Source: Escherichia coli
GTDB lineage: Bacteria > Pseudomonadota > Gammaproteobacteria > Enterobacterales > Enterobacteriaceae
Length of the DNA: 64,000 nt
Assembly: GCF_041248615.1 (NCBI RefSeq)
Contig: NZ_CP158426.1
Strand: one strand, 5' to 3'
Shown here: piece after piece, positions 8,228 to 58,589 of the stretch
Position numbering within the stretch: the stretch's first letter is position 1
Layout: each line of letters opens with the position of its first letter
Notes under the pieces: generated by a model
The model's database searches: none
The model's input: only the letters and a program-made list of their open reading frames with translations
Told to the model about the DNA's origin: nothing
Program-made: the position numbers and the translations under genes

Positions 8228-8900
8228 AAATGCGCCTGTAAGGCTCTGTTACCAGCCGCGCCCTAACAGGCGCATACGATCTGACATTTGCATTCAACTT
8301 CGTTACTTACGGCCCGTAAACGGGCTGCCCGGATAGGGAATCGATAACTGCTCCCCCATTTTATCCTCTTCAAGCTGGTGCTTTATGTAGTCCTGTATCT
8401 TCGCCGTGTTCTTACCCACCGTATCGACATAGTACCCTCGGCACCAGAACTCCCTGTTTCTGTATTTGAATTTCAAATCCCCAAACTGCTCGTAAAGCAT
8501 CAGACTGCTTTTCCCTTTCAGATATCCCATAAAGCCGGATACGCTCATTTTGGGTGGGATTTCCACAAGCATATGGATATGATCTGCGCAGCACTCTGCT
8601 TCCAGAATCCGTACGCTTTTCCACTCACACAGCTTTCTCAAAATACTGCCTATCGCCCTACGCTTCTCTCCGTAAAACGCCAGTCTTCGGTATTTCGGCG
8701 CAAAAACTATGTGATATTTACAGTTCCAGCGGGTGTGCGCTAAGCTCTTTTCGTCCCCCATTGGGACCCCCTTTTGATTTCTTGTTTGACACTTGCAGTT
8801 GCCAGACCGCAAGGTGTTTTAACAAATCAAAAGGGGTTTTAATAACTGGCTCAAAGCTGAAAGCTTTCCGGAACCCCCAGCCTAGCTGGGGGTTTTCTGT
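8228..8900 (-). mobile_element. IS200-like insertion sequence (IS200/IS605 family); boundaries approximate
   Basis: Contains an intact IS200-type tnpA, a structured 5' leader with an RBS-sequestering inverted repeat and a perfect terminal hairpin (8874..8892), plus subterminal palindromes near 8231..8273 and 8307..8330. This family makes no target duplication, so ends cannot be set precisely by eye. Confidence 0.8.
8303..8761 (-). CDS. tnpA: IS200-type Y1 (HuH) transposase TnpA, 152 aa
   Basis: Translation MGDEKSLAHTRWNCKYHIVFAPKYRR...HIHMLVEIPPK...GYYVDTVGKN is near-identical to the IS200 TnpA I recall (HuH motif HIHML, catalytic Tyr region). Track ORF 8303..8812 has an upstream extension; the Met at 8761 has a GGGGG Shine-Dalgarno. 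Confidence 0.9.
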   Translation of the reverse strand: MGDEKSLAHTRWNCKYHIVFAPKYRRLAFYGEKRRAIGSILRKLCEWKSVRILEAECCADHIHMLVEIPPKMSVSGFMGYLKGKSSLMLYEQFGDLKFKYRNREFWCRGYYVDTVGKNTAKIQDYIKHQLEEDKMGEQLSIPYPGSPFTGRK

Positions 8901-14181: not shown

Positions 14182-16077
14182 TTACCAACCACCACCGCCT
14201 CCGCCACCCGCACCGCCGCCAGCACCACCACCGGAATAGCTTCGCCCCAACAAACTGGTATAGGCCCCGCAACTCAGGTGCGTCTGCAATGAGAATAAAA
14301 CGCCACTACGGGCAATTTCCGGGGCGCTAACAGCCGCTGTGAGTGATGGGGTGATACGTTCTGCCCATTCTCTGCCAAGGTTTGCCGAGACCGCCCAACC
14401 TAACAATGCGTAATCCAGTTTCCGTGTTTCCCCTTTCCGCCGCCGCCCACTGTGTGTTGCCGCCTCTTTACGCGCAAGATAGTTAACGATAGCTTCACCG
14501 TGGGCATAACGTTGCTGCCCAGTTTGGGTAAACTTTGGCAGAAAAATATACCCTATGCCAGTGAGATAACCGGTCAGAAAAACAGCGCTAAAATAACCCG
14601 CTGGCATATACCAGTAAAAGAATACATCTCCGACATTGATATAGAGAGAATAAAAGGCCACGCCTGAACAAATCAGCGGTAAAAACAAAGTGATGATTAC
14701 ACAATTAACGCAAGGCTTGTCATCATCGCGGGCAAACAAAAGCTCAAGGGAACAAAATAAAAAAGGAAGAAGCCAGCAGATCATAATAAACATATCGCCC
14801 ACCAGACTCATTCCTGCCCAGCCTACGGGACTCAGGTTACCGTAGAGAATGACCGCTAATATCGCCATTCCCCCCCATTGCAAAAACGCATCAGGTCGGT
14901 AAAACGAAGACTTTTTACGCGGCAGATAAAATTTCTGCATCCGTAAAAATGCACTGCGTAAGACTCTGTTGCGTCTCCCCGTAAGAACGACCTTATCGCC
15001 TTTACGAAATAACGCTTCCAGTAATAACTTCTCTGCGGGCAGTAATACCGCATTATTTCTGGTCGCGCCTTCATTAACACGAATCAGGATTTGCTGGTTC
15101 TTGTCATACTGATCTTTCAGATGAATTTTGCCTTTCACAATCAGATTTACGATATCGGCACAAAAACCTTTATCGTCGTAAACCAGTTTCGCATCGAGAC
15201 GTAACATGCCGGGTGTGTAATCTGGCGGAATGACATCGGTTTCAATCACATCTACCGGCGTAAATTGCGGCCTGCGCTTCCAGAGATATAACCATCCACA
15301 CGCCAGGAACAGACACGGAAACCAAATTAACAACGATGACGTAGAGGGTAAAAGAAGATGGCTGAAAATATTCGTCGTTTGTGGTGCCGGGGCATTACCA
15401 AGTAAAGCGTGAGGCCAGCGGTAGAGGACCGTGAAGTCTTCACGATAAAACGGATCGCGGGATTCAATTCTTCCGTCCTCAAGGATGCGGCCATTTCGAT
15501 ATGTGTCGCCCTCTTCTCCAGTAAAGAGATCAATTTCGCTAAATGAATTACCCGCAATATCAGGCAACTGGAGAGAAAATCGGGTCTTATAGATTTCAAA
15601 CGGCCACTTGTTACCGGTCACGTTCCAGATTAACAGATCAGAATCTCCCTCACGCAGGAAAGCATTTTTAACCTGATAATGAATTTGATAATGATAGTCA
15701 CCTTGAGGCAAGAAACGTTGTTTATCGCCCACGACAATACTCATTAAACCGATATGCCAGTCAAGATGCCAGGGTTCAGGAACACCATCACGGGTGACGC
15801 CAACAATATGATAGTTCAGCAGTGCAGCGTCACCATTAGGCTGCATCCATAGTCGTGGTAAATCACGATAAAATCCGTGCTTAATCTGCTGATTTCGCGC
15901 CTGAAAATGAATGTTCTCTTTGATGTCGAGCACCCCATCCAGTTGCAGGGTGGCTTCAACATCAAAGAGCGAGATCCCTTCTTCATAAGAAGGGATCTCC
16001 GTGTTTTCTGCATAACTTAGAGATGATACAAACAGCCCTGCTATCAACAGCAAAATGCAGCGAAACTTCCCTGCCAT
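14182..16077 (-). CDS. yciQ: Membrane protein YciQ (DUF2207 family) with C-terminal poly-Gly tail
   Basis: 631-aa ORF with signal peptide, multiple TM segments and a terminal GGGAGGGAGGGGGGGW tail. Confidence 0.9.
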   Translation of the reverse strand: MAGKFRCILLLIAGLFVSSLSYAENTEIPSYEEGISLFDVEATLQLDGVLDIKENIHFQARNQQIKHGFYRDLPRLWMQPNGDAALLNYHIVGVTRDGVPEPWHLDWHIGLMSIVVGDKQRFLPQGDYHYQIHYQVKNAFLREGDSDLLIWNVTGNKWPFEIYKTRFSLQLPDIAGNSFSEIDLFTGEEGDTYRNGRILEDGRIESRDPFYREDFTVLYRWPHALLGNAPAPQTTNIFSHLLLPSTSSLLIWFPCLFLACGWLYLWKRRPQFTPVDVIETDVIPPDYTPGMLRLDAKLVYDDKGFCADIVNLIVKGKIHLKDQYDKNQQILIRVNEGATRNNAVLLPAEKLLLEALFRKGDKVVLTGRRNRVLRSAFLRMQKFYLPRKKSSFYRPDAFLQWGGMAILAVILYGNLSPVGWAGMSLVGDMFIMICWLLPFLFCSLELLFARDDDKPCVNCVIITLFLPLICSGVAFYSLYINVGDVFFYWYMPAGYFSAVFLTGYLTGIGYIFLPKFTQTGQQRYAHGEAIVNYLARKEAATHSGRRRKGETRKLDYALLGWAVSANLGREWAERITPSLTAAVSAPEIARSGVLFSLQTHLSCGAYTSLLGRSYSGGGAGGGAGGGGGGGW

Positions 16078-17740: not shown

Positions 17741-17785
17741 ATGAAAGCAATTTTCGTACTGAAAGGTTGGTGGCGCACTTCCTGA
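17741..17785 (+). CDS. trpL: trp operon leader peptide ([14 protein letters not shown])
   Basis: 14-codon ORF with tandem Trp codons TGG TGG at 17768..17773. Confidence 0.95.
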
Positions 17786-17827
17786 AACGGGCAGTGTATT
17801 CACCATGCGTAAAGCAATCAGATACCC

Positions 17828-17856
17828 AGCCCGCCTAATGAGCGGGCTTTTTTTTG
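17828..17856 (+). terminator. trp attenuator (3:4 terminator hairpin plus U-tract)
   Basis: AGCCCGCC-TAAT-GAGCGGGCT followed by TTTTTTTT, between trpL and trpE. Confidence 0.92.
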
Positions 17857-28576: not shown

Positions 28577-28975
28577 ATGTCTACAACACATAACGTCCCT
28601 CAGGGCGATCTTGTTTTACGTACTTTAGCCATGCCCGCCGATACCAATGCCAATGGTGACATCTTTGGTGGTTGGTTAATGTCACAAATGGATATTGGCG
28701 GCGCTATTCTGGCGAAAGAAATTGCCCACGGTCGCGTAGTGACCGTGCGGGTTGAAGGAATGACTTTCTTACGACCGGTTGCGGTCGGCGATGTAGTGTG
28801 CTGCTATGCACGCGGTGTCCAGAAAGGGACGACATCGGTCAGCATTAATATTGAAGTGTGGGTGAAAAAGGTCGCGTCTGAACCCATCGGGCAACGTTAT
28901 AAAGCGACAGAAGCATTATTTAAGTATGTCGCGGTTGATCCTGAAGGAAAACCTCGCGCCTTACCTGTTGAGTAA
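28577..28975 (+). CDS. yciA: Acyl-CoA thioester hydrolase YciA (hotdog fold)
   Basis: 132-aa ORF; conserved position adjacent to tonB. Confidence 0.92.
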   Translation: MSTTHNVPQGDLVLRTLAMPADTNANGDIFGGWLMSQMDIGGAILAKEIAHGRVVTVRVEGMTFLRPVAVGDVVCCYARGVQKGTTSVSINIEVWVKKVASEPIGQRYKATEALFKYVAVDPEGKPRALPVE

Positions 28976-28980
28976 TAATC

Positions 28981-29004
28981 AAAAGCCTCCGGTCGGAGGC
29001 TTTT
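28981..29004. terminator. Bidirectional tonB / yciA terminator
   Basis: Symmetric AAAAGCCTCCG-GTC-GGAGGCTTTT hairpin with A-run and T-run on either side, between convergent gene ends. Confidence 0.85.
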
Positions 29005-29014
29005 GACTTTCTGC

Positions 29015-29734
29015 TTACTGAATTTCGGTGGTGCCGTTAATTTTAAACAGGATATTCACCACAATCCCACTGCCTGGCTTACCCGGCTCATAACGCCATC
29101 TGCGCATCGCATTTTTCACCTCACGCTCAAACATGTTCGCAGGCTTGGCTGAGAGGATTTGCACGTTATCCACGCGACCATCCGGCGTGACATCAAATTT
29201 AACTTTAACCTGCCCTTCAATGCGCAATGCCTGTGCTCGTGCCGGATACTGCGGCTGATTGCGGCTTAATGCGCGTGGTCCTGAAGCCACACTGGTAACC
29301 GGCTTGCTGGTTGTAGCCGTCGCCGTACTTGATGTCGGGCGCGCGGGCGCCGTATTTTCAAACGGTGATGCCGGACGCGACTCTACGGGTTTGACATCGC
29401 GTTTTGGCTGCTCCTGTACCTTTTTCACCGGCTTCGGTTTTGGCTTAGGTTTCGGCTTCGGCTTTTCAATGACCACCGGTGCTTCTTTTGGCGGTTCGGG
29501 GATCGGCTCAGGTTCCGGTTCTGGCTCTACCACCGGCTCCGGTGGCGGCTGAACGGCTTGTGGCGGTTCGAGATCCGCAGGCGCAACCATCGTGACAGAA
29601 ATTGGCTGCGCAGGCGCAGGTAGTTCAATAACCTGATGTACCGAGGTATAGAGCAGACCCGCCACAACAGCACCATGAATGCAGACCGAAAGTAACGTCG
29701 GCCAGGGGAAGCGGCGAGGTAAATCAAGGGTCAT
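29015..29734 (-). CDS. tonB: Energy transducer TonB
   Basis: 239-aa product starting [17 protein letters not shown]... with (EP)n/(KP)n Pro-rich spacer; track ORF carries a 17-codon upstream extension. Confidence 0.95.
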
Positions 29735-29780
29735 TGAAGTCATAATCATTTCAGTAGAAAAACCAGGCCTCGATTTTAAA

Positions 29781-29800
29781 TGCAAATAGCAATCATATTC
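29781..29800. promoter_or_regulatory. Candidate Fur box in the tonB promoter
   Basis: AAATAGCAATCATATTC resembles the Fur consensus (GATAATGATAATCATTATC) 45-65 bp upstream of the tonB start. Confidence 0.45.
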
Positions 29801-29957
29801 AATAAGGCAAGACGATCAGGATCAGTGAAAATGTCATTTTTGGCGTAATTGACCTTACTTTTTAAATGGTCTTAACAAAGACATCATCTTTCCGTTGCAG
29901 ATCTTCGCCCTTTCAAATAACGTACTTTACAACTTTCCCGAACAAGGAGTTGTGCCC

Positions 29958-30254
29958 GTGTTGTATGTTATTTACGCTCAAGACAAAGCTGATAGCCTCG
30001 AAAAACGCCTTTCCGTTCGTCCGGCACATTTAGCACGTTTACAGTTACTGCATGATGAAGGTCGATTGTTGACCGCCGGTCCAATGCCAGCAGTAGACAG
30101 TAACGATCCAGGGGCTGCGGGATTTACTGGCTCAACCGTTATTGCTGAATTTGAATCGCTGGAAGCAGCTCAGGCCTGGGCCGATGCTGACCCGTACGTA
30201 GCGGCAGGAGTCTATGAATACGTTTCAGTGAAACCATTTAAGAAAGTGTTCTGA
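29958..30254 (+). CDS. yciI: YciI-family protein (Dabb-type fold)
   Basis: 98-aa product from a GTG start at 29958 ([29 protein letters not shown]...) with AAGGAG upstream. Confidence 0.85.
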
Positions 30255-41503: not shown

Positions 41504-44179
41504 ATGGCTGTTACTAATGTCGCTGAACTTAACGCACTCGTAGAGCGTGTAAAAAAAGCCCAGCGTGAATATGCCAGTTTCACTCAAGAGCAAGTAGACA
41601 AAATCTTCCGCGCCGCCGCTCTGGCTGCTGCAGATGCTCGAATCCCACTCGCGAAAATGGCCGTTGCCGAATCCGGCATGGGTATCGTCGAAGATAAAGT
41701 GATCAAAAACCACTTTGCTTCTGAATATATCTACAACGCCTATAAAGATGAAAAAACCTGTGGTGTTCTGTCTGAAGACGACACTTTTGGTACCATCACT
41801 ATCGCTGAACCAATCGGTATTATTTGCGGTATCGTTCCGACCACTAACCCGACTTCAACTGCTATCTTCAAATCGCTGATCAGCCTGAAGACCCGTAACG
41901 CCATTATCTTCTCCCCGCACCCGCGTGCAAAAGATGCAACCAACAAAGCAGCTGATATCGTTCTGCAGGCTGCTATCGCTGCCGGTGCTCCGAAAGATCT
42001 GATCGGCTGGATCGATCAACCTTCTGTTGAACTGTCTAACGCACTGATGCACCACCCAGACATCAACCTGATCCTCGCGACTGGTGGTCCGGGCATGGTT
42101 AAAGCCGCATACAGCTCCGGTAAACCAGCTATCGGCGTAGGCGCGGGCAACACTCCAGTTGTTATCGATGAAACTGCTGATATCAAACGTGCAGTTGCAT
42201 CTGTACTGATGTCCAAAACCTTCGACAACGGCGTAATCTGTGCTTCTGAACAGTCTGTTGTTGTTGTTGACTCTGTTTATGACGCAGTACGTGAACGTTT
42301 CGCAACCCACGGCGGCTATCTGTTGCAGGGTAAAGAGCTGAAAGCTGTTCAGGACGTTATCCTGAAAAACGGTGCGCTGAACGCGGCTATCGTTGGTCAG
42401 CCAGCCTATAAAATTGCTGAACTGGCAGGCTTCTCTGTACCAGAAAACACCAAGATTCTGATCGGTGAAGTGACCGTTGTTGATGAAAGCGAACCGTTCG
42501 CACATGAAAAACTGTCCCCGACTCTGGCAATGTACCGCGCTAAAGATTTCGAAGACGCGGTAGAAAAAGCAGAGAAACTGGTTGCTATGGGCGGTATCGG
42601 TCATACCTCTTGCCTGTACACTGACCAGGATAACCAACCGGCTCGCGTTTCTTACTTCGGTCAGAAAATGAAAACGGCTCGTATCCTGATTAACACCCCG
42701 GCTTCTCAGGGTGGTATCGGTGACCTGTATAACTTCAAACTCGCACCTTCCCTGACTCTGGGTTGTGGTTCCTGGGGTGGTAACTCCATCTCTGAAAACG
42801 TTGGTCCGAAACACCTGATCAACAAGAAAACCGTTGCTAAGCGAGCTGAAAACATGTTGTGGCACAAACTTCCGAAATCTATCTACTTCCGCCGTGGCTC
42901 CCTGCCAATCGCGCTGGATGAAGTGATTACTGATGGCCACAAACGTGCGCTCATCGTGACTGACCGCTTCCTGTTCAACAATGGTTATGCTGATCAGATC
43001 ACTTCCGTACTGAAAGCAGCAGGCGTTGAAACTGAAGTCTTCTTCGAAGTAGAAGCTGACCCGACCCTGAGCATCGTTCGTAAAGGTGCAGAACTGGCAA
43101 ACTCCTTCAAACCAGACGTGATTATCGCGCTGGGTGGTGGTTCCCCGATGGACGCCGCGAAGATCATGTGGGTTATGTACGAACATCCGGAAACTCACTT
43201 CGAAGAGCTGGCGCTGCGCTTTATGGATATCCGTAAACGTATCTACAAGTTCCCGAAAATGGGCGTGAAAGCGAAAATGATCGCTGTCACCACCACTTCT
43301 GGTACAGGTTCTGAAGTCACTCCGTTTGCGGTTGTAACTGACGACGCTACTGGTCAGAAATATCCGCTGGCAGACTATGCGCTGACCCCGGATATGGCGA
43401 TTGTCGATGCCAACCTGGTTATGGACATGCCGAAGTCCCTGTGTGCTTTCGGTGGTCTGGACGCAGTAACTCACGCCATGGAAGCTTATGTTTCTGTACT
43501 GGCATCTGAGTTCTCTGATGGTCAGGCTCTGCAGGCGCTGAAACTGCTGAAAGAATATCTGCCAGCGTCCTACCACGAAGGATCTAAAAATCCGGTAGCG
43601 CGTGAACGTGTTCACAGTGCAGCAACTATCGCGGGTATCGCGTTTGCGAACGCCTTCCTGGGTGTATGTCACTCAATGGCGCACAAACTGGGTTCCCAGT
43701 TCCATATTCCGCACGGTCTGGCAAACGCCCTGCTGATTTGTAACGTTATTCGCTACAACGCGAACGACAACCCGACCAAGCAGACTGCATTCAGCCAGTA
43801 TGACCGTCCGCAAGCTCGCCGTCGTTATGCTGAAATTGCTGACCACCTGGGTCTGAGCGCACCGGGCGACCGTACTGCTGCTAAGATCGAGAAACTGCTG
43901 GCATGGCTGGAAACGCTGAAAGCTGAACTGGGTATTCCGAAATCTATCCGTGAAGCTGGCGTTCAGGAAGCAGACTTCCTGGCGAATGTGGATAAACTGT
44001 CTGAAGATGCATTCGATGACCAGTGCACCGGCGCTAACCCGCGTTACCCGCTGATCTCCGAGCTGAAACAGATTCTGCTGGATACCTACTACGGTCGTGA
44101 TTATGTAGAAGGTGAAACTGCAGCGAAAAAGGAAGCCGCTCCGGCTAAAGCTGAGAAAAAAGCGAAGAAATCCGCTTAA
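41504..44179 (+). CDS. adhE: Bifunctional aldehyde/alcohol dehydrogenase AdhE
   Basis: 891-aa [57 protein letters not shown]...; ALDH and iron-ADH domains. Confidence 0.97.
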
Positions 44180-51003: not shown

Positions 51004-51088
<85 letters not shown>

Positions 51089-51122
51089 TCTCAAGCATTA
51101 CCTCAAAATTTGAATTACCCCT

Positions 51123-51207
<85 letters not shown>

Positions 51208-51742
51208 TCACTTTCAAAAGTCCCTGAACTCTCAAACGAATCCGTAATTAAATATTCTGCCCAAGCGGGGAAGGATGAGAAGCTTCGACCAAGGTTCGAC
51301 TTGAGCGCCAGCGAGAGAGCGTGGCCGCAGGCAACGACCCGAAGGGCGAAGCGCGCAGCGCTGAGTAATCCTTCCCCCACCACCATAACTTTCAAAAGCC
51401 CCGGAATTCTCAAACGAATCCGCAATCAAATATTCTGCCCATGCGGGGAAGGATGAGAAGCTTCAACCAAGGTTCGACTTGAGCGCCAGCGAGAGAGCGT
51501 TGCCGCAGGCAACGACCCGAAGGGCGAAGCGCGCAGCGCTGAGTAATCCTTCTCCCACCACCATCACTTTTCAAAAGTCCGTGAACTCTCAAACGAATCC
51601 GCAATTAAATATTCTGCCCATGCGGGGAAGGATGAGAAGCTTCGACCAAGGTGCGACTCGAGCGCCAGCGAGAAAGCGTTGCCGCAGGCAACGACCCGAA
51701 GGGTGAAGCGCGCAGCGCTGAGTAATCCTTCCCCCACCACCA
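51208..51742 (+). repeat. Three tandem 178-bp repeat units distal to tyrV (rtT / tpr region)
   Basis: Units at about 51208..51385, 51386..51563 and 51564..51742, each ending in the tRNA-Tyr 3' terminal sequence AATCCTTCCCCCACCACCA; contains a protamine-like basic ORF. Confidence 0.9.
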
Positions 51743-51807
51743 TCACTTCCTGTAAATACTCAAAACCTGTTACTCCGAGCTAATTCTACCCAATGGCACC
51801 GCGTTTA

Positions 51808-53314: not shown

Positions 53315-54849
53315 GGGTGCGGCTCCGTTTTGCTGGTTACGTCGATGGCATCGATACGGCGGCTGTTGAACAGATTGAATTTGGTATCTGAACCGTGGCA
53401 GCCATCACCAAAGGTAAAGCCGCAGCCATTTTTCTCCGGGAAGGCTTCCCGCGCCAGTTCACGATGACTGCTCGGCACCACAAAGCGATCTTCGTAGTTA
53501 GCAATCGCCAGATAACGGTACATCTCCTGTGCCTGGGCTTCGGTCAGACCGACCTCTTCCAGCGCACGGGTATCGACTTTACCGTCAACGGTTTCAGCAC
53601 GTTTGTAATGACGCATCGCCAGCATACGTTTCAGCGCGCGCAGTACCGGTTTGGTATCACCGGCGGTCAGCAGATTCGCCAGATACTGTACCGGAATACG
53701 CAGGCTTTCGACGTCTGGCAGAATGCCGTTGCTGCCCAGCTCACCCGCGTCTGCTGCAGACTGAATCGGCGACAGAGGCGGCACGTACCAGACCATCGGC
53801 AGTGTGCGATATTCTGGATGCAGCGGCAGCGCCAGTTTCCATTCCATCGCCATTTTATAAACCGGCGACTGCTGTGCGGCTTCAATAACGCTCAGCGGAA
53901 TACCGTCTTTAATTGCCTGCTCGATGACTTTCGGATCGTTCGGATCGAGGAACACCTCCAGCTGACGCTGGTAGAGATCTTTCTCGTTCTCGGTGCTGGC
54001 TGCACGTTCAATGGCGTCCGCATCGTACAGCAGCACGCCGAGATAACGGATACGACCGACACAGGTTTCAGAGCACACCGTCGGCTGACCCGCTTCAATA
54101 CGCGGATAGCAGAAGATGCACTTCTCAGACTTACCGCTCTTCCAGTTGAAGTAGATTTTTTTGTATGGGCATCCGGTGATGCACATACGCCAGCCACGGC
54201 ATTTATCCTGGTCGATCAGGACGATGCCATCTTCTTCACGCTTGTAAATCGCACCGCTCGGGCAGGTCGCCACACATGCCGGGTTCAGGCAGTGTTCGCA
54301 CAGGCGCGGCAAATACATCATGAAGGTGTTTTCGAACTGGCTATACATCGCCTTCTGGATGTTGTCGAAGTTCTTGTCTTTCGCCAGTTTGTCAAACTCA
54401 CCGCCCAGGTCATCTTCCCAGTTCGGCCCTTTTTCGATTTTCGCCATCCGTTCCCCGGTAATCAGCGAACGCGGACGGGCAATCGGCTGCGATTTGCTGC
54501 CTTCCGGCGCGGTATGCAGGTTCTGATAGTCAAAATCGAACGGCTCGTAATAATCGTCGATCCCCGGCAGATGCGGGTTAGCGAAGATTTTACCCAGCAG
54601 CATGGCACGGTTACCCATGCGCGGCTGCAGTTTGCCGTTGATTTTACGAATCCAGCCGCCTTTGTATTTTTCCTGGTTTTCCCAGTCAGTCGGGAAGCCC
54701 TGGCCCGGCTTGGTTTCCACGTTGTTGAACCACGCGTATTCCACGCCTTCGCGGCTGGTCCAGACGTTTTTACAGGTAACTGAACAGGTGTGGCAGCCGA
54801 TGCACTTATCGAGATTCAGCACCATGCCGACTTGTGAACGAATTTTCAT
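53311..54849 (-). CDS. narH: Respiratory nitrate reductase 1 beta subunit (Fe-S)
   Basis: 512-aa ORF with multiple Cys clusters (CIGCHTC, CEHCLNPACVATCP). Confidence 0.96.
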   Translation of the reverse strand: MKIRSQVGMVLNLDKCIGCHTCSVTCKNVWTSREGVEYAWFNNVETKPGQGFPTDWENQEKYKGGWIRKINGKLQPRMGNRAMLLGKIFANPHLPGIDDYYEPFDFDYQNLHTAPEGSKSQPIARPRSLITGERMAKIEKGPNWEDDLGGEFDKLAKDKNFDNIQKAMYSQFENTFMMYLPRLCEHCLNPACVATCPSGAIYKREEDGIVLIDQDKCRGWRMCITGCPYKKIYFNWKSGKSEKCIFCYPRIEAGQPTVCSETCVGRIRYLGVLLYDADAIERAASTENEKDLYQRQLEVFLDPNDPKVIEQAIKDGIPLSVIEAAQQSPVYKMAMEWKLALPLHPEYRTLPMVWYVPPLSPIQSAADAGELGSNGILPDVESLRIPVQYLANLLTAGDTKPVLRALKRMLAMRHYKRAETVDGKVDTRALEEVGLTEAQAQEMYRYLAIANYEDRFVVPSSHRELAREAFPEKNGCGFTFGDGCHGSDTKFNLFNSRRIDAIDVTSKTEPHP

Positions 54850-57800
54850 TTTACGCTCTCCTGTACCTGGTCATTGCCTTCGCCATCTAACCAGTCAATG
54901 TTCTTCATCTTACGCACCACAACAAACTCATCGCGGTTAGAACCTACGGTGCCGTAGTAGTTAAAGCCGTATGCCAGATGGGCATAGCCGCCAATCATAT
55001 GCGTCGGTTTCGGCGTGATACGGGTGACCGAGTTATGGATACCACCACGCTGTTGGGTAATTTCCGAACCCGGCAGGTTAACGATACGTTCCTGCGCGTG
55101 GTACATCATGGTCATCCCTGCCGGAACACGCTGGCTGACAACCGCACGGGCAGTCAGTGCACCGTTGCTGTTGAAGACTTCAATCCAGTCGTTATCGGCG
55201 ATACCCAGCTCTTTGGCATCGGCTTCACTCAACCAGACCACCGGACCACCGCGACCTAAAGTCAGCATCAGCAGGTTGTCGCTGTAGGTGGAGTGGATAC
55301 CCCACTTCTGGTGCGGCGTCAGGAAGTTGAGCGCTTTTTCCGGGTTACCGTTAGATTTCTGGCCCATCACCTCTTTTACCGAACGGGTGTCGATTGGCGG
55401 GCGATAAACCAGCAGGCTTTCACCGAAATCACGCATCCACTGGTGATCCTGATACAGCTGCTGACGGCCAGAGAGCGTACGCCATGGGATCAGCTCGTGA
55501 ACGTTGGTGTAACCGGCGTTGTAAGAAACGTGTTCATCTTCAAGGCCAGACCAGGTCGGGCTGGAGATGATTTTGCGCGGCTGTGCCTGAATATCGCGGA
55601 AGCGAATCTTCTCGTCTTCTTTATTCAGCGCCAGATGCGTATGGTCACGACCGGTAAACTCGCTCAGGGCAGCCCAGGCTTTCACGGCTACCTGACCGTT
55701 GGTTTCCGGTGCCAGCGTCAGGATCATCTCTGCCGCATCAATTGCGGTGTTCAGCATGGGCTGGCCTTTTGCCGGACCTTCCGCTTTGGTGTAGTTGAGC
55801 TTACGCAGCAGATCCATCTCGCTCTGGGTGTTCCAGGCAATCCCTTTACCGCCGTTACCGATTTTCTCCATCAGCGGGCCGATAGAGGTAAAGCGTTCGT
55901 AAGTTGCCGGATAATCGCGCTCTACGACCATAATGTGCGGTGCAGTTTTACCTGGGATCAGGTCGCATTCGCCTTTTTTCCAGTCTTTCACATCCAGCGG
56001 TTGCGCCAGTTCAGCGGCAGAGTCGTGCTGGATAGGCAGCGTGACGATGTCAGTTTCTTTACCCAGATGACCAACGCACACTTCGGAGAATTTCTTCGCG
56101 ATGGCTTTGTAGATTTCCCAGTCGCTTTTCGCTTCCCAGGCCGGATCGACCGCCGCAGACAGCGGGTGAATAAACGGATGCATATCCGAAGTATTCATGT
56201 CGTCTTTTTCGTACCAGGTCGCCGTCGGCAAAATGATGTCGGAATAGAGACAGGTGCTCGACAGACGGAAGTCCAGCGTCACCACCAGATCCAGCTTGCC
56301 TTCCAGACCGTTGTCCTGCCAGTCCACTTCTTCCGGCTTCACGCCGCCCTGCTGCCCCAGGTCTTTGCCCTGGATACCGTGCTCCGTCCCCAGCAGGTAC
56401 TTGAGCATAAACTCATGACCTTTACCGGAAGAACCGAGCAGGTTAGAACGCCAGATGAACAGGTTACGCGGGTGGTTTTTACCGTTTTCTGGTTGTTCTG
56501 CCGCAAAACGGATAGAACCCTCTTTCAGGGATTTCACGGTGTAATCCACCGGATTCATGCCCGCTTTTTTCGCTTCGCCAGCGATAGTTAGCGGGTTAGT
56601 GCCTAACTGCGGCGCAGACGGCAGCCAGCCCATACGTTCTGCACGGACGTTAAAGTCGATCAGATGTCCGGTATAACGGGATTTATCCGCCATCGGCGAC
56701 AACAACTCTTCTGCGGTCACGGTTTCATAACGCCACTGGCTGGAGTGGTTATAGAAATAAGAGGTGCTGTTCATGTGACGCGCCGGACGCTGCCAGTCAA
56801 GAGCAAACGCCAGCGGCTGCCAGCCGGTTTGCGGACGCAGTTTTTCCTGACCTACATAGTGCGCCCAGCCACCACCGCTCTGACCTACACAGCCGCAGAA
56901 AATCAGCATGTTGATCAGACCACGATAGTTCATATCGAGGTGATACCAGTGGTTCAGCCCCGCACCGACGATAATCATCGAACGACCGTGGGTTTTATCA
57001 GCGTTATCGGCAAATTCACGGGCGATGCGAATAATCTGGCTGCGAGAAACGCCGGTAATCTGCTCGGCCCACGCAGGGGTGTAAGCTTTCACATCGTCGT
57101 AGCTGGTTGCGCAGTTAACGTCGTTCAGGCCACGTTCCAGACCATAGTTTGCCAGCGTCAGATCGTAAACGGTGGTCACCAGAGCGGTGCAGCCATCAGC
57201 CAGTTGCAGGCGTTTCACCGGCAGCTTGTGCAGCAGAATGTTTTCCAGTTCCACTTTGTTGAAGTGTTCAGTGCCGTCGCCACCAAAGTACGGGAAGCCC
57301 ACCTCAGCGATCTCATCCTGGCTACCCAGCAGGCTCAGTTGCAGCTCGGTTTCTTCGCCAGTTTTGCCGTCGCGCTGTTCAAGATTCCATTTGCCCTTCT
57401 CGCCCCAGCGGAAGCCAATAGAACCGTTCGGCGCAACCATTTCGCCATTGGTATTAAAGGCGACAGTTTTCCATTCCGGATTGTTTTCCTGGCCCAGCGC
57501 ATCCACCAGATCAGCAGCGCGCAGCATACGACCTGCGGCGTAGTAACCGTCGCGTTCTTCCAGCATCACCAGCATCGGCATGTCGGTGTAGCGACGCACA
57601 TAGTCGGTGAAATACTGGCTTGGGTTGTCGAGGTGGAATTCACGCAGCATTACGTGGCCCATCGCCAGCGCCATTGCCGCATCGGTGCCCTGTTTCGGTG
57701 CCAGCCACAGATCGCACAGTTTGGCGATTTCAGCGTAGTCTGGCGTGACGGCAACAGTTTTGGTGCCTTTGTAACGCACTTCAGTAAAGAAGTGAGCATC

Positions 57801-58589
57801 CGGGGTACGCGTCTGCGGCACGTTTGAACCCCAGGCGATGATGTAGCTGGAGTTGTACCAGTCAGCAGATTCCGGTACGTCAGTCTGCTCGCCCCAGGTT
57901 TGCGGAGACGCAGGAGGCAGGTCGCAGTACCAGTCGTAGAAGCTTAAGCAAGTACCGCCAAGCAGCGAGAGATAACGCGCGCCGGAAGCGTAAGAAACCA
58001 TCGACATTGCCGGAATTGGCGAGAAGCCAGCGACGCGGTCCGGGCCGTAGTTTTTGATGGTGTAAACGTTAGAGGCGGCGATCAGTTCATTCACTTCCTG
58101 CCAGGAAGAACGAACAAAACCACCGCGTCCACGCGCCTGCTTAAAGCTTTTCGCTTTATCGGCGTCTTCAATGATAGAAGCCCATGCCTCAACTGGATCG
58201 CTATGCAGCGCTTTCGCTTCACGCCACATTTTCATCAGGCGTTTGCGCATCATCGGGTATTTCAGGCGGTTGGCGCTGTAAAGATACCAGGAGTAGCTGG
58301 CACCGCGCGGGCAGCCGCGAGGTTCATGGTTTGGCAGGTCCGGGCGAGTACGCGGATAGTCAGTCTGCTGGGTTTCCCAGGTCACCAGACCGTTTTTGAC
58401 GTAGATTTTCCAGCTGCAGGAGCCGGTGCAGTTTACCCCGTGGGTAGAGCGGACGATTTTGTCATGCTGCCAACGCTGGCGATATCCATCCTCCCAGTCA
58501 CGGTTGGTATTGAGAAGCTGGCCATGCCCATCGGCAAAGGTTTCACCCTTCTGTTTGAAGTAGCGAAACCGGTCCAGGAATTTACTCAT
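54846..58589 (-). CDS. narG: Respiratory nitrate reductase 1 alpha subunit (molybdopterin)
   Basis: 1247-aa ORF MSKFLDRFRYFKQKGETFADGHGQ... Confidence 0.97.
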   Translation of the reverse strand: MSKFLDRFRYFKQKGETFADGHGQLLNTNRDWEDGYRQRWQHDKIVRSTHGVNCTGSCSWKIYVKNGLVTWETQQTDYPRTRPDLPNHEPRGCPRGASYSWYLYSANRLKYPMMRKRLMKMWREAKALHSDPVEAWASIIEDADKAKSFKQARGRGGFVRSSWQEVNELIAASNVYTIKNYGPDRVAGFSPIPAMSMVSYASGARYLSLLGGTCLSFYDWYCDLPPASPQTWGEQTDVPESADWYNSSYIIAWGSNVPQTRTPDAHFFTEVRYKGTKTVAVTPDYAEIAKLCDLWLAPKQGTDAAMALAMGHVMLREFHLDNPSQYFTDYVRRYTDMPMLVMLEERDGYYAAGRMLRAADLVDALGQENNPEWKTVAFNTNGEMVAPNGSIGFRWGEKGKWNLEQRDGKTGEETELQLSLLGSQDEIAEVGFPYFGGDGTEHFNKVELENILLHKLPVKRLQLADGCTALVTTVYDLTLANYGLERGLNDVNCATSYDDVKAYTPAWAEQITGVSRSQIIRIAREFADNADKTHGRSMIIVGAGLNHWYHLDMNYRGLINMLIFCGCVGQSGGGWAHYVGQEKLRPQTGWQPLAFALDWQRPARHMNSTSYFYNHSSQWRYETVTAEELLSPMADKSRYTGHLIDFNVRAERMGWLPSAPQLGTNPLTIAGEAKKAGMNPVDYTVKSLKEGSIRFAAEQPENGKNHPRNLFIWRSNLLGSSGKGHEFMLKYLLGTEHGIQGKDLGQQGGVKPEEVDWQDNGLEGKLDLVVTLDFRLSSTCLYSDIILPTATWYEKDDMNTSDMHPFIHPLSAAVDPAWEAKSDWEIYKAIAKKFSEVCVGHLGKETDIVTLPIQHDSAAELAQPLDVKDWKKGECDLIPGKTAPHIMVVERDYPATYERFTSIGPLMEKIGNGGKGIAWNTQSEMDLLRKLNYTKAEGPAKGQPMLNTAIDAAEMILTLAPETNGQVAVKAWAALSEFTGRDHTHLALNKEDEKIRFRDIQAQPRKIISSPTWSGLEDEHVSYNAGYTNVHELIPWRTLSGRQQLYQDHQWMRDFGESLLVYRPPIDTRSVKEVMGQKSNGNPEKALNFLTPHQKWGIHSTYSDNLLMLTLGRGGPVVWLSEADAKELGIADNDWIEVFNSNGALTARAVVSQRVPAGMTMMYHAQERIVNLPGSEITQQRGGIHNSVTRITPKPTHMIGGYAHLAYGFNYYGTVGSNRDEFVVVRKMKNIDWLDGEGNDQVQESVK

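Follow-up and report, generated by a model that had tools for sequence, protein, structure and literature searches.

The proline-rich spacer of Escherichia coli TonB is encoded by an imperfect hexanucleotide repeat whose length differs, always in frame, among natural genomes. The explanation that best accounts for all observations, to which we assign a probability of about 90%, is that this is the known TonB spacer, with a hexamer repeat undergoing passive in-frame insertions and deletions and with an open reading frame on the opposite strand that is a shadow of the gene. The locus was analysed within a window of 64,000 nt, the whole stretch from which the piece displayed here is taken, and was compared with complete E. 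coli genomes and with TonB proteins of E. coli and Shigella.

On the evidence of its sequence, the reading frame spanning this piece is E. coli tonB, and the interval under study (29380..29545) encodes the proline-rich spacer, or domain II (Table 1). The translation consists, in order, of an N-terminal membrane anchor, the Pro-rich spacer and a C-terminal domain. TonB_N (PF16031) matches residues 33-157 over the entire profile (1-138 of 138; E = 2.9e-37, 128.8 bits, cut-off 33) and TonB_C (PF03544) matches residues 160-230 (E = 5.8e-20, 72 bits, cut-off 24.6). The single N-terminal transmembrane anchor contains the SHLS motif S-x3-H-x6-L-x3-S at S16, H20, L27 and S31, following the definition of the TonB anchor given in PMC12204202, while the codon table and the TonB_N match place an acidic X-Pro tract and then a basic X-Pro tract in the periplasmic spacer. 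Full-length TonB chains in the PDB match residues 1-239, and the C-terminal domain matches the solved E. coli TonB structures 1u07, 2gsk, 1ihr and 2grx, in line with a predicted TonB-box binding. The DNA of the gene is 100% identical to the annotated tonB of E. coli strain Ch1, and its neighbours are yciA and yciI, in the same yciA-tonB-yciI order as in every E. coli region fetched. Matches to tonB were obtained in 5423 E. coli records (5422 of 5426 genomes with a match), and no Rfam family matches in or near the gene at the gathering threshold. The original prediction, which had assigned the region to tonB, is thus borne out by Pfam, by complete DNA identity and by the neighbouring genes. The tonB of MG1655 is the same gene with the same architecture and the same spacer amino-acid sequence, and the window DNA is 98.1% identical to it; 14 DNA positions differ, with no difference in the spacer feature itself, and outside the spacer MG1655 has T, L and A at residues 50, 134 and 142 where the window has A, P and T.

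Table 1. Features of the tonB locus, with positions in the 64,000-nt window, strand and basis of assignment
Feature	Position	Strand	Basis
tonB coding sequence, 239 aa plus stop	29015..29734	-	ORF, translation, Pfam, annotated matches, PDB chains
Glu-Pro tract, codons 66-81	29492..29539	-	codon table; lag-6 identity 0.52
Core (EP)4, GAGCCA GAACCG GAACCT GAGCCG	29504..29527	-	codon table
Non-repetitive hinge PKEAPVVIE, codons 82-90	29465..29491	-	lag-6 identity 0.24, background level
Lys-Pro tract, codons 91-102, (KP)6	29429..29464	-	TRF; lag-6 identity 0.77
Only perfect tandem, (AAGCCG)2	29453..29464	-	DNA alignments of alleles
12-nt unit duplicated in KP8, AAGCCAAAACCG	29435..29446	-	alleles of LH13-b and RMDEC332
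10-nt direct repeat CGAACCGCCA, upstream copy	29561..29570	-	repeat search, family D4
10-nt direct repeat CGAACCGCCA, downstream copy	29489..29498	-	repeat search, family D4
8-nt direct repeat AGCCGGTG, upstream copy	29531..29538	-	repeat search, family D1
8-nt direct repeat AGCCGGTG, downstream copy	29426..29433	-	repeat search, family D1
9-nt direct repeat AGCCAAAAC, upstream copy	29437..29445	-	junction analysis
9-nt direct repeat AGCCAAAAC, downstream copy	29401..29409	-	junction analysis
Gln107 codon, 3-nt indel, GTACAGGAG to GTGGAG in the 717-bp allele	29414..29416	-	alignments
Antisense ORF, 97 aa, TTG start, Gly/Phe/Ser-rich translation	29259..29552	+	ORF list
Symmetric GC-rich hairpin, 12-bp stem, A and T runs on its flanks	28979..29006	.	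terminator scan

The protein repeats a dipeptide, and the DNA is therefore an imperfect hexanucleotide repeat. Over the interval 29380..29545 the self-identity at lag 6 is 0.444, as compared with 0.281 ± 0.036 in dinucleotide-preserving shuffles (z = 4.5, 0 of 2000), and the same shuffles give z = 4.2 at lag 12 (0 of 2000) and z = 3.7 at lag 18 (1 of 2000). The lag-6 signal resides in two blocks, the Lys-Pro tract (0.77) and the Glu-Pro tract (0.52), against a window background of 0.27, and no clear periodicity relative to that background is seen in the hinge (0.24) or in the lowest part of the interval studied, 29380..29428 (0.35). TRF reports a single period-6 array in the window, coinciding with the Lys-Pro tract (6.0 copies, 76% matches). 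The short-period repeat proposed for this interval is therefore present, as are its two proposed plus-strand motifs inside the tracts, but the interval was drawn about 50 nt too generously on the low side. The motif GGCTTCGG, at 29430 and 29454, has two of its three occurrences in the window there, and GGTTCCGG, at 29511, its only one; the degenerate form GGYTYNGG has 25 sites in the whole window, 10 of them in the interval.

In coding orientation the six units of the Lys-Pro tract read AAGCCG AAGCCG AAACCT AAGCCA AAACCG AAGCCG, the first two forming the perfect tandem, and in the (EP)4 core no neighbouring pair of units is identical. Resampling of synonymous codons yields a DNA periodicity as predicted from the dipeptide sequence (P 0.15-0.22), and a codon choice that avoids or favours perfect DNA repeats found no support, there being no significant departure in this test of low power, which used codon usage derived from the window with a few long antisense shadow ORFs in the table.

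A comparison of tonB across strains, set beforehand as the check on the predicted in-frame length variation, revealed repeat-number variation in addition to the periodicity: complete genomes carry KP2, KP5, KP7, KP8 and EP5 alleles. Of the 5423 records from complete E. coli genomes, about 97.6% carry KP6 and about 123 have a different unit number in the Lys-Pro tract (KP7 in about 117, KP5 in 3, KP8 in 3 and KP2 in at least 1). These counts derive from a census in which 5302 records matched without gaps at 95% identity or more, 120 fell in a band with a 6-nt gap, 1 in the 80-90% band and 7 gave partial matches, together with a KP7-specific query (112 + 14 records at 95% identity or more) and a KP5-specific query (exactly 3 single-piece matches). 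The Glu-Pro tract is gapped in only 2 of the 5423 records, and the one examined, KE48, carries EP5 by duplication of GAACCG.

DNA alignments locate these changes to particular units. Both KP7 and KP5 arise at the perfect tandem, by gain to (AAGCCG)3 and by loss to (AAGCCG)1, respectively. The 12 additional nucleotides of KP8, found in three genomes, are a duplication of AAGCCAAAACCG, as established with a 177-nt query; an origin by a fourth AAGCCG was rejected. KP2, in strain 7_33_46A (the complete genome of a bovine isolate), results from a 24-nt deletion between two copies of CCGAAGCCG. Two SNP backgrounds were found for each of KP5, KP7 and KP8, mismatches being counted over ungapped alignment columns only. 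KP7 is found in an allele otherwise identical to MG1655 (VE-T9, 0 mismatches) and in the window-like AR_0015 (3 mismatches from the window, 11 from MG1655), KP5 in a REF2-identical allele that lacks Gln107 and in a different allele that has it, and KP8 in two alleles differing in 9 columns. Over the 177 nt examined, most of the KP7 genomes have a single haplotype in common, and most probably descend clonally from a small number of events. As an in-frame coding tandem repeat, the region combines significant periodicity with whole-unit polymorphism that has arisen more than once.

Overall, tonB lengths of 696, 711, 714, 717, 720, 723, 726 and 732 bp occur in complete E. coli genomes. Across the 23 enterobacterial spacers tabulated, the longest EP run comprises 2-5 units and the longest KP run 2-6, and the PKEAPVVI hinge is the same in all 23. 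No catalogue of E. coli tonB repeat-number alleles was found in the literature searched, the nearest being a statement on Klebsiella pneumoniae MLST in PMC3299796.

Larger losses are also concentrated in the spacer. In TonB proteins of 199-237 aa from E. coli and Shigella, seventeen distinct in-frame deletion types were identified, 15 of them lying wholly within residues 56-111, one (90-129) beginning there and one (128-136) lying outside. Microhomology at the junctions reaches 10 nt: copies of CGAACCGCCA (10 nt) flank a 72-nt deletion of residues 56-79, copies of AGCCAAAAC (9 nt) a 36-nt deletion of residues 98-109 in 227-aa alleles, and copies of AGCCGGTG (8 nt) a 105-nt deletion of residues 67-101 in a 203-aa allele present on 7 contigs. 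Exact microhomology of 4-10 nt is seen for about half of the deletion alleles, which fits deletion between direct repeats; the remainder, including several large ones, have 0-3 nt and fit a simple direct-repeat model poorly. The null distribution for microhomology includes the repeat region itself, so that the P values are conservative. Some alleles are well represented: 37 contigs carry the one without residues 77-97, and 13 the KP5 protein P0002. A difference of another kind is the 717-bp allele without Gln107 (11 of 60 systematically sampled records), which has no junction microhomology in the allele alignments and is not a change in repeat units.

In the reading that we favour, the TonB spacer consists of an acidic Glu-Pro and a basic Lys-Pro tract with a short conserved hinge between them, and the tract would be moderately prone to in-frame indels. 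Replication slippage, either at (AAGCCG)2 or at 12-nt units nearby, would add or remove whole Lys-Pro units, and misalignment between the many direct repeats of 4-10 nt across both tracts may remove larger in-frame blocks. Indel alleles would persist, as nearly neutral variants, because spacer function appears only loosely dependent on length and experiments have shown that the region can be dispensed with. In population data the effects of mutation and selection are mixed; an elevated indel rate at the tract is a prediction, and slippage is inferred from allele structure. Deletions could be clustered in the spacer either through a higher mutation rate or through selection, given that deletions elsewhere would kill function.

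This reading agrees with what is described for TonB. The EP and KP repeats form extended polyproline-II rods (PMC10771500), which span about 100 Angstrom from the inner-membrane anchor and ExbB-ExbD across the periplasm to the outer-membrane TonB-dependent transporters (PMC10771500; bioRxiv 10.1101/2021.12.08.471779), and the proline-rich domain was deleted with retention of activity by Larsen, Wood and Postle in 1993 (as cited in bioRxiv 10.1101/2021.12.08.471779). Natural alleles without residues 67-101, 65-91, 73-99 or 77-97 remove a segment similar to that of the engineered deletions, but are of spontaneous origin, with short direct repeats often found at their ends. In the sister genus, the K. 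pneumoniae MLST scheme likewise has natural in-frame length polymorphism in tonB, with indels in 28 of 176 alleles (PMC3299796); these are not mapped to repeat units in the available text of that source, whereas the E. coli series is mapped to hexamer and 12-mer units. In the paralogous Tol system, domain II of TolA is also a low-complexity repetitive spacer, connecting a motor in the inner membrane with the outer membrane, and its deletions are described as tolerated until reach is lost (PMC10666116; PMC12204202), although in E. coli TolA it is an alpha-helical Lys/Ala/Glu repeat and in TonB a polyproline-II dipeptide repeat. The polyproline-II rods, the dispensable Pro-rich domain and the Klebsiella MLST tonB indels are all already known biology, and the locus is ordinary and understood.

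An adaptive role is an unlikely alternative, in which the spacer would be an evolvable length tuner and the KP gains and losses and the large deletions would be selected rather than merely tolerated, possibly by TonB-dependent phages, colicins or siderophore-antibiotics, against which a shortened TonB might protect in part, or by the width or osmolarity of the periplasm, to which length would be matched. The recurrence of length classes on different backgrounds, the persistence of near-complete spacer deletions in lineages (the alleles on 37 and 7 contigs) and the different EP and KP numbers among enterobacterial genera are compatible with such a role, as is the statement that truncation of TonB lowers its function through a shorter reach across the periplasm (PMC10666116). 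Against it, the predominance of KP6 and the near absence of gaps in the Glu-Pro tract resemble stabilising selection or low mutation input, a pair of perfect units offers only a small mutation supply, and the variant strains come from heterogeneous hosts and sources (human, swine, chicken, bovine, plant). A phase-variable contingency locus was considered separately and rejected, since changes are always in frame, only two adjacent units are identical and the variant genes are intact. The contingency loci of Neisseria and Haemophilus likewise have, within coding sequence, a short tandem repeat that gains and loses copies through slippage, but in tonB the 6-nt unit preserves the frame, only two units are perfect, variants amount to about 2% and no ON/OFF switching follows; the tract works like a weak microsatellite rather than a contingency locus.

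Artefacts of sequencing or assembly, for instance collapsed repeats or indel errors of long reads, are a very improbable source of the length variants, even though some deletion alleles (P0025, P0038, P0039, P0040, P0049 and P0063) come from a single short draft contig and start-codon calls are inconsistent among database entries. The whole repeat, at 36-48 nt, is far below any read length, which makes collapse implausible. Every change in length is divisible by 3, and most amount to complete units of 6 or 12 nt. The same KP7, KP5 and KP8 alleles recur in independent complete genomes, some alleles are carried on as many as 37 or 13 contigs, and all variant genes are annotated as intact by PGAP. 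Artefact is thus largely refuted, and passive variation of a genuine spacer repeat remains the preferred reading.

Antisense to the spacer, an open reading frame is present where it had been predicted and its description as spurious holds up, but the repeat is not its specific cause. By the tests applied, it appears to be a by-product of the composition of tonB and no gene. Its frame shares wobble positions with tonB, such that stops are possible only opposite Tyr codons or Gln and His codons that follow a codon ending in T, and it stays open for 97 codons because this part of tonB lacks such codons; the open stretch extends far past the repeats, from Gln62 to Gln160, with an antisense TGA at both ends. 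When the codons of tonB were shuffled, an open antisense stretch of at least 98 codons was obtained in 53% of trials (P = 0.53), and of the 93 ORFs in the window that reach 97 aa, 32 are embedded antisense in this manner, the one at tonB being the shortest, so that the idea of an unusually long ORF was rejected. It has no Pfam match and, among the matches listed for the 5423 matching records, no feature besides tonB is annotated under the match. That it is a genuine overlapping gene for a Gly/Phe/Ser-rich peptide is hardly credible, for although its 97 codons are free of stops and it is open in all 8 alleles examined (76-101 aa), this openness is forced by the frame and ends exactly at Gln62 and Gln160, its length is no greater than composition explains and shifts with every tonB indel, it begins with TTG with no obvious Shine-Dalgarno seen by eye in the 25 nt upstream, and it carries neither a Pfam match nor, among the matches listed, any annotation other than tonB.

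The low-complexity stretch and its 97-codon antisense ORF hence represent nothing new, and gene callers should skip the latter. The length of E. coli tonB is not fixed; where typing schemes, primers or allele callers take it as constant, about 2% of genomes will be mis-handled on account of the repeat and about 18% on account of the Gln107 codon. Large deletions in the spacer of natural strains are ready-made alleles for testing the reach that TonB needs in vivo.

The hairpin listed in Table 1 lies between the convergent yciA and tonB and resembles a bidirectional terminator.

The interval 29380..29545 lies within an open reading frame (ORF) whose identification as tonB is upheld by Pfam matches to TonB_N (residues 33-157, E 2.9e-37) and TonB_C (residues 160-230, E 5.8e-20), full-length matches to PDB chains named TonB, 100% DNA identity with tonB as annotated in E. 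coli strain Ch1 (98.1% with that of MG1655), and the neighbouring yciA and yciI, which flank tonB likewise in every E. coli region fetched. Of 5426 complete E. coli genomes, 5422 have a tonB match, and the four without one could be tonB-trp deletion strains. The hairpin between yciA and tonB (TCAAAAGCCTCCGGTCGGAGGCTTTTGA) is presumably the classic bidirectional rho-independent terminator of this locus, and the sigma-70-like match upstream of tonB, the sole one in the scanned region, is overlapped by an AT-rich putative Fur-box-like sequence recognised by eye (GAATATGATTGCTATTTGC). An in-frame TTG at 29785 in the window would make the tonB ORF 256 aa long. Database TonB entries P0001, P0003, P0005, P0007, P0020 and P0027 have inconsistent N-termini (MTSMTLDL..., MANATMPNSYNTMTLDL... 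and others), owing to differing start-codon calls or upstream sequence differences.

Features of the tonB locus and of its Pro-rich spacer
Feature	Position	Strand	Remarks
yciA	28577..28975	+	4HBT thioesterase; tonB neighbour
GC-rich hairpin	28979-29006		symmetric, 12-bp stem; flanked on each side by A and T runs; separates the convergent yciA and tonB
tonB ORF	29015..29734	-	239 aa; encloses 29380..29545
Antisense ORF	29259..29552	+	97 aa, TTG start; ORF scan
Lys-Pro tract (KP)6	29429..29464	-	codons 91-102; AAGCCG AAGCCG AAACCT AAGCCA AAACCG AAGCCG
(AAGCCG)2	29453..29464	-	only perfect tandem
Hinge PKEAPVVIE	29465..29491	-	codons 82-90; non-repetitive
Glu-Pro tract	29492..29539	-	codons 66-81
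Sigma-70-like match	29773-29802	-	TTGAAT-18 nt-TAAAAT; upstream of tonB; consensus match
yciI	29958..30254	+	YCII domain; tonB neighbour

Repeat periodicity, on which the original prediction had been staked, is evident in the DNA: lag-6 self-identity over 29380..29545 is 0.444, as against 0.281 +/- 0.036 in 2000 dinucleotide-preserving shuffles (z 4.5; 0/2000), with harmonics at twice and three times that lag (12, z 4.2; 18, z 3.7) and no signal at other lags, and the sole period-6 array that TRF reports in the window coincides with the Lys-Pro tract (6.0 copies, 76% matches). The motifs quoted in the prediction are in place (GGCTTCGG at 29430 and 29454, GGTTCCGG at 29511) and nearly unique to the spacer within the 64-kb window. 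Since 29380..29428 is, like the hinge, at or near background, the interval proposed for the repeat holds for the Lys-Pro (KP) and Glu-Pro (EP) tracts (lag-6 identity 0.77 and 0.52, respectively) but is ~50 nt too wide at its low end. When synonymous codons were resampled with the amino-acid sequence fixed and usage taken from the long ORFs of the window, a procedure of low power, expected and observed lag-6 identities were alike for the KP tract (0.84 and 0.77, P 0.17), its EP4 counterpart (0.83 and 0.72, P 0.15) and the whole spacer (0.52 and 0.50, P 0.22), with no sign of codon choice breaking up or sharpening the repeat; the DNA periodicity is therefore a mere shadow of the dipeptide repeat.

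Alignment of tonB across strains, the check proposed for the predicted in-frame length variation, reveals it as changes in repeat number, with KP2, KP5, KP7, KP8 and EP5 alleles (numerals giving the units) beside the KP6 and EP4 of the window. Among 60 records sampled systematically from the 5423 with a match, gene length is 720 bp in 46, 717 bp in 11 and 726 bp in two, the gene being IS-interrupted in one. The 726-bp allele is KP7, with (AAGCCG)3 aligned to the (AAGCCG)2 of KP6. The 717-bp allele, common at ~18% (11/60), lacks the Gln107 codon (GTACAGGAG to GTGGAG, 29414..29416, inside the predicted interval), a 3-nt loss that leaves the repeat units unaltered, shows no microhomology at its junction and accompanies a distinct SNP haplotype resembling REF2, a comparison E. 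coli allele without Gln107.

Short tract-specific queries were run against the E. coli genomes, their identity bands telling gapped from ungapped matches. A 77-nt KP6 query matched 5302 records at no less than 95%, 120 in the 6-nt-gap band, one lower and seven partially; one partial match is bovine strain 7_33_46A (tonB 696 bp), in which a 24-nt deletion between two copies of CCGAAGCCG leaves KP2. The KP7 query matched 112 + 14 records at 95% or above, or ~117-119 genomes once partial matches are allowed for, and a 177-nt query is consistent with this total. Exactly three single-piece matches were obtained with the KP5 query (CAU16175, PEC240 and L1PEag1), and the 177-nt query found +12 nt in three genomes, two of which were examined (LH13-b and RMDEC332, 732-bp tonB) and are KP8 through duplication of AAGCCAAAACCG. 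KP6 is kept in 97.6% of genomes, which suggests low mutational input (two perfect units only), stabilising selection, or both. The EP tract is far stabler than the KP tract, being gapped in only 2/5423 records, and in KE48, the one examined, the change is a duplicated GAACCG unit that makes EP5; this stability fits the DNA, in which every EP unit differs from its neighbours.

Mismatches counted across ungapped alignment columns place KP7 on an MG1655-identical background (VE-T9, 0 mismatches) and on a window-like one (AR_0015, 3 mismatches from the window and 11 from MG1655), KP5 on both a REF2-identical allele without Gln107 and a distinct allele with it, and KP8 on two alleles that differ at 9 columns. 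The simplest reading of these backgrounds is that KP5, KP7 and KP8 each originated independently more than once, although recombination of a short segment, a less simple but possible account, could likewise have put the length classes on several SNP backgrounds. Most KP7 genomes have one local haplotype in common and are probably clonal.

Larger losses came from a protein search, in which numerous TonB sequences of 199-237 aa from E. coli and Shigella were recovered, representing 17 distinct in-frame deletion types when aligned to the window protein. Fifteen lie wholly inside residues 56-111 (window ~29400..29570), one (residues 90-129) begins there and one (residues 128-136) is outside. Short direct repeats flank many of these deletions in the DNA, with lengths of 10 nt (CGAACCGCCA) for residues 56-79, 9 nt (AGCCAAAAC) for residues 98-109, 8 nt (AGCCGGTG) for residues 67-101, 6 nt (AAGCCG) for residues 91-100, 4-5 nt for four others and 0-3 nt for the remainder. 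The allele without residues 77-97 was found on 37 contigs, that without residues 67-101 on seven and the KP5 protein P0002 on 13, one a 4.77-Mb record; some deletion alleles are thus common enough to be inherited, and lower weight is given to several others that are singletons on short draft contigs. From this allele structure we infer that replication slippage at perfect or near-perfect 6- and 12-nt units would add or remove whole Lys-Pro units, and that misalignment of dispersed short direct repeats would remove larger blocks; with a 6-nt unit, all products stay in frame, and variants would survive because the spacer tolerates altered length.

The long antisense ORF that the repeat was said to create exists exactly as described, but it is the general composition of tonB, not the repeat as such, that keeps it open. 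Its frame has third-codon positions in common with tonB, and antisense stops are possible only at a Tyr codon after a T- or C-ending codon, or at a Gln or His codon after a T-ending one; tonB has exactly seven such sites, and the ORF is the gap from Gln62 to Gln160, covering the entire disordered middle of TonB, beyond the repeats. Codon-shuffled tonB has a mean longest open stretch of 107 codons, reaching at least 98 in 53% of trials, ORF length follows every tonB indel (76 to 101 aa in eight alleles), and the Gly/Phe/Ser low-complexity translation has no Pfam match, all of which marks the ORF as spurious, as originally proposed. No Shine-Dalgarno sequence is obvious by eye in the 25 nt upstream of its TTG, and no feature besides tonB is annotated under the tonB match among the matches listed. 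A genuine overlapping antisense gene fails every test applied. The window has 93 ORFs that reach 97 aa or more; 32 of them are antisense shadows of longer ORFs, that of tonB being the shortest shadow. Far longer ones occur at 53395-54783 (+; 462 aa in a 512-aa ORF), 41855-43672 (-; 605 aa in an 891-aa ORF), and 55293-56591 and 56664-57827 (+; 432 + 387 aa in a 1247-aa ORF), and their hosts look like narH, adhE and narG by size and order.

The EP and KP repeats have been known since the tonB sequence was originally reported in the 1980s. Conformation and dispensability of the spacer were reportedly addressed by Evans in 1986, Brewer in 1990, Larsen in 1993 and Kohler in 2010. The tracts are two oppositely charged polyproline-II rods in a ~70-residue proline-rich region (PMC10771500), a shortened spacer has less reach and weaker function (PMC10666116), and paired acidic and basic tracts are confined to Enterobacterales, Pasteurellales and B. 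pertussis (PMC12204202). Among 22 TonB sequences from enterobacteria, the maximum run is 2 to 5 units for EP and likewise 2 to 5 for KP, as against 6 KP units in E. coli, and the PKEAPVVI hinge is constant in those compared. As in E. coli, natural indels are documented at the Klebsiella pneumoniae MLST tonB locus, in 28/176 alleles (PMC3299796). Unlike a contingency locus, the tonB repeat has an in-frame unit, two perfect units and no switching. The feature is real, and as the TonB spacer of the textbooks it is both known and fully explained, the E. coli allelic series being an unsurprising case of a known phenomenon; mildly new are the explicit series, which no paper found in the literature searched sets out, the contrast of a variable KP tract with a stable EP one, and the collection of natural deletions that remove nearly all of the spacer.

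In XL1-Blue (locus L006, NZ_CP132550.1, 1107-3164) an IS4-family ISVsa5 (IS10-like) element breaks the tonB 3' end, leaving a 66-nt remnant annotated as a partial hypothetical protein and a truncated tonB re-annotated as a 702-bp gene. KE48 'plasmid unnamed1' (locus L010, NZ_CP141085.1, 385,579 bp) bears the chromosomal block cls-yciY-kch-yciI-tonB-yciA-yciB-yciC-ompW; across the E. coli collection 13 tonB matches fall on plasmid-labelled records, which may be mis-assigned chromosome fragments, F-prime-like elements or chromids, and some genomes have up to three tonB places. Elsewhere in the window, Rfam gathering-level matches to the sRNAs STnc180 (2131-2333, -) and STnc490 (8771-8894, -) and to the tryptophan operon leader (17762-17855, +) fit the trp-tonB region of the E. 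coli chromosome. The known tyrT-tyrV/RtT arrangement occupies 51004-51748: after a pair of tRNA genes come three tandem repeats of 178 bp, all of them Rfam RtT matches (127-131 bits). The strongest lag-6 signal in the window comes from a period-12/18 tandem repeat at 14188-14233, which encodes the terminal Gly/Ala tail GGGAGGGAGGGGGGGW of a 631-aa membrane-protein ORF (14182-16077, -) and is a further candidate site of in-frame length variation.
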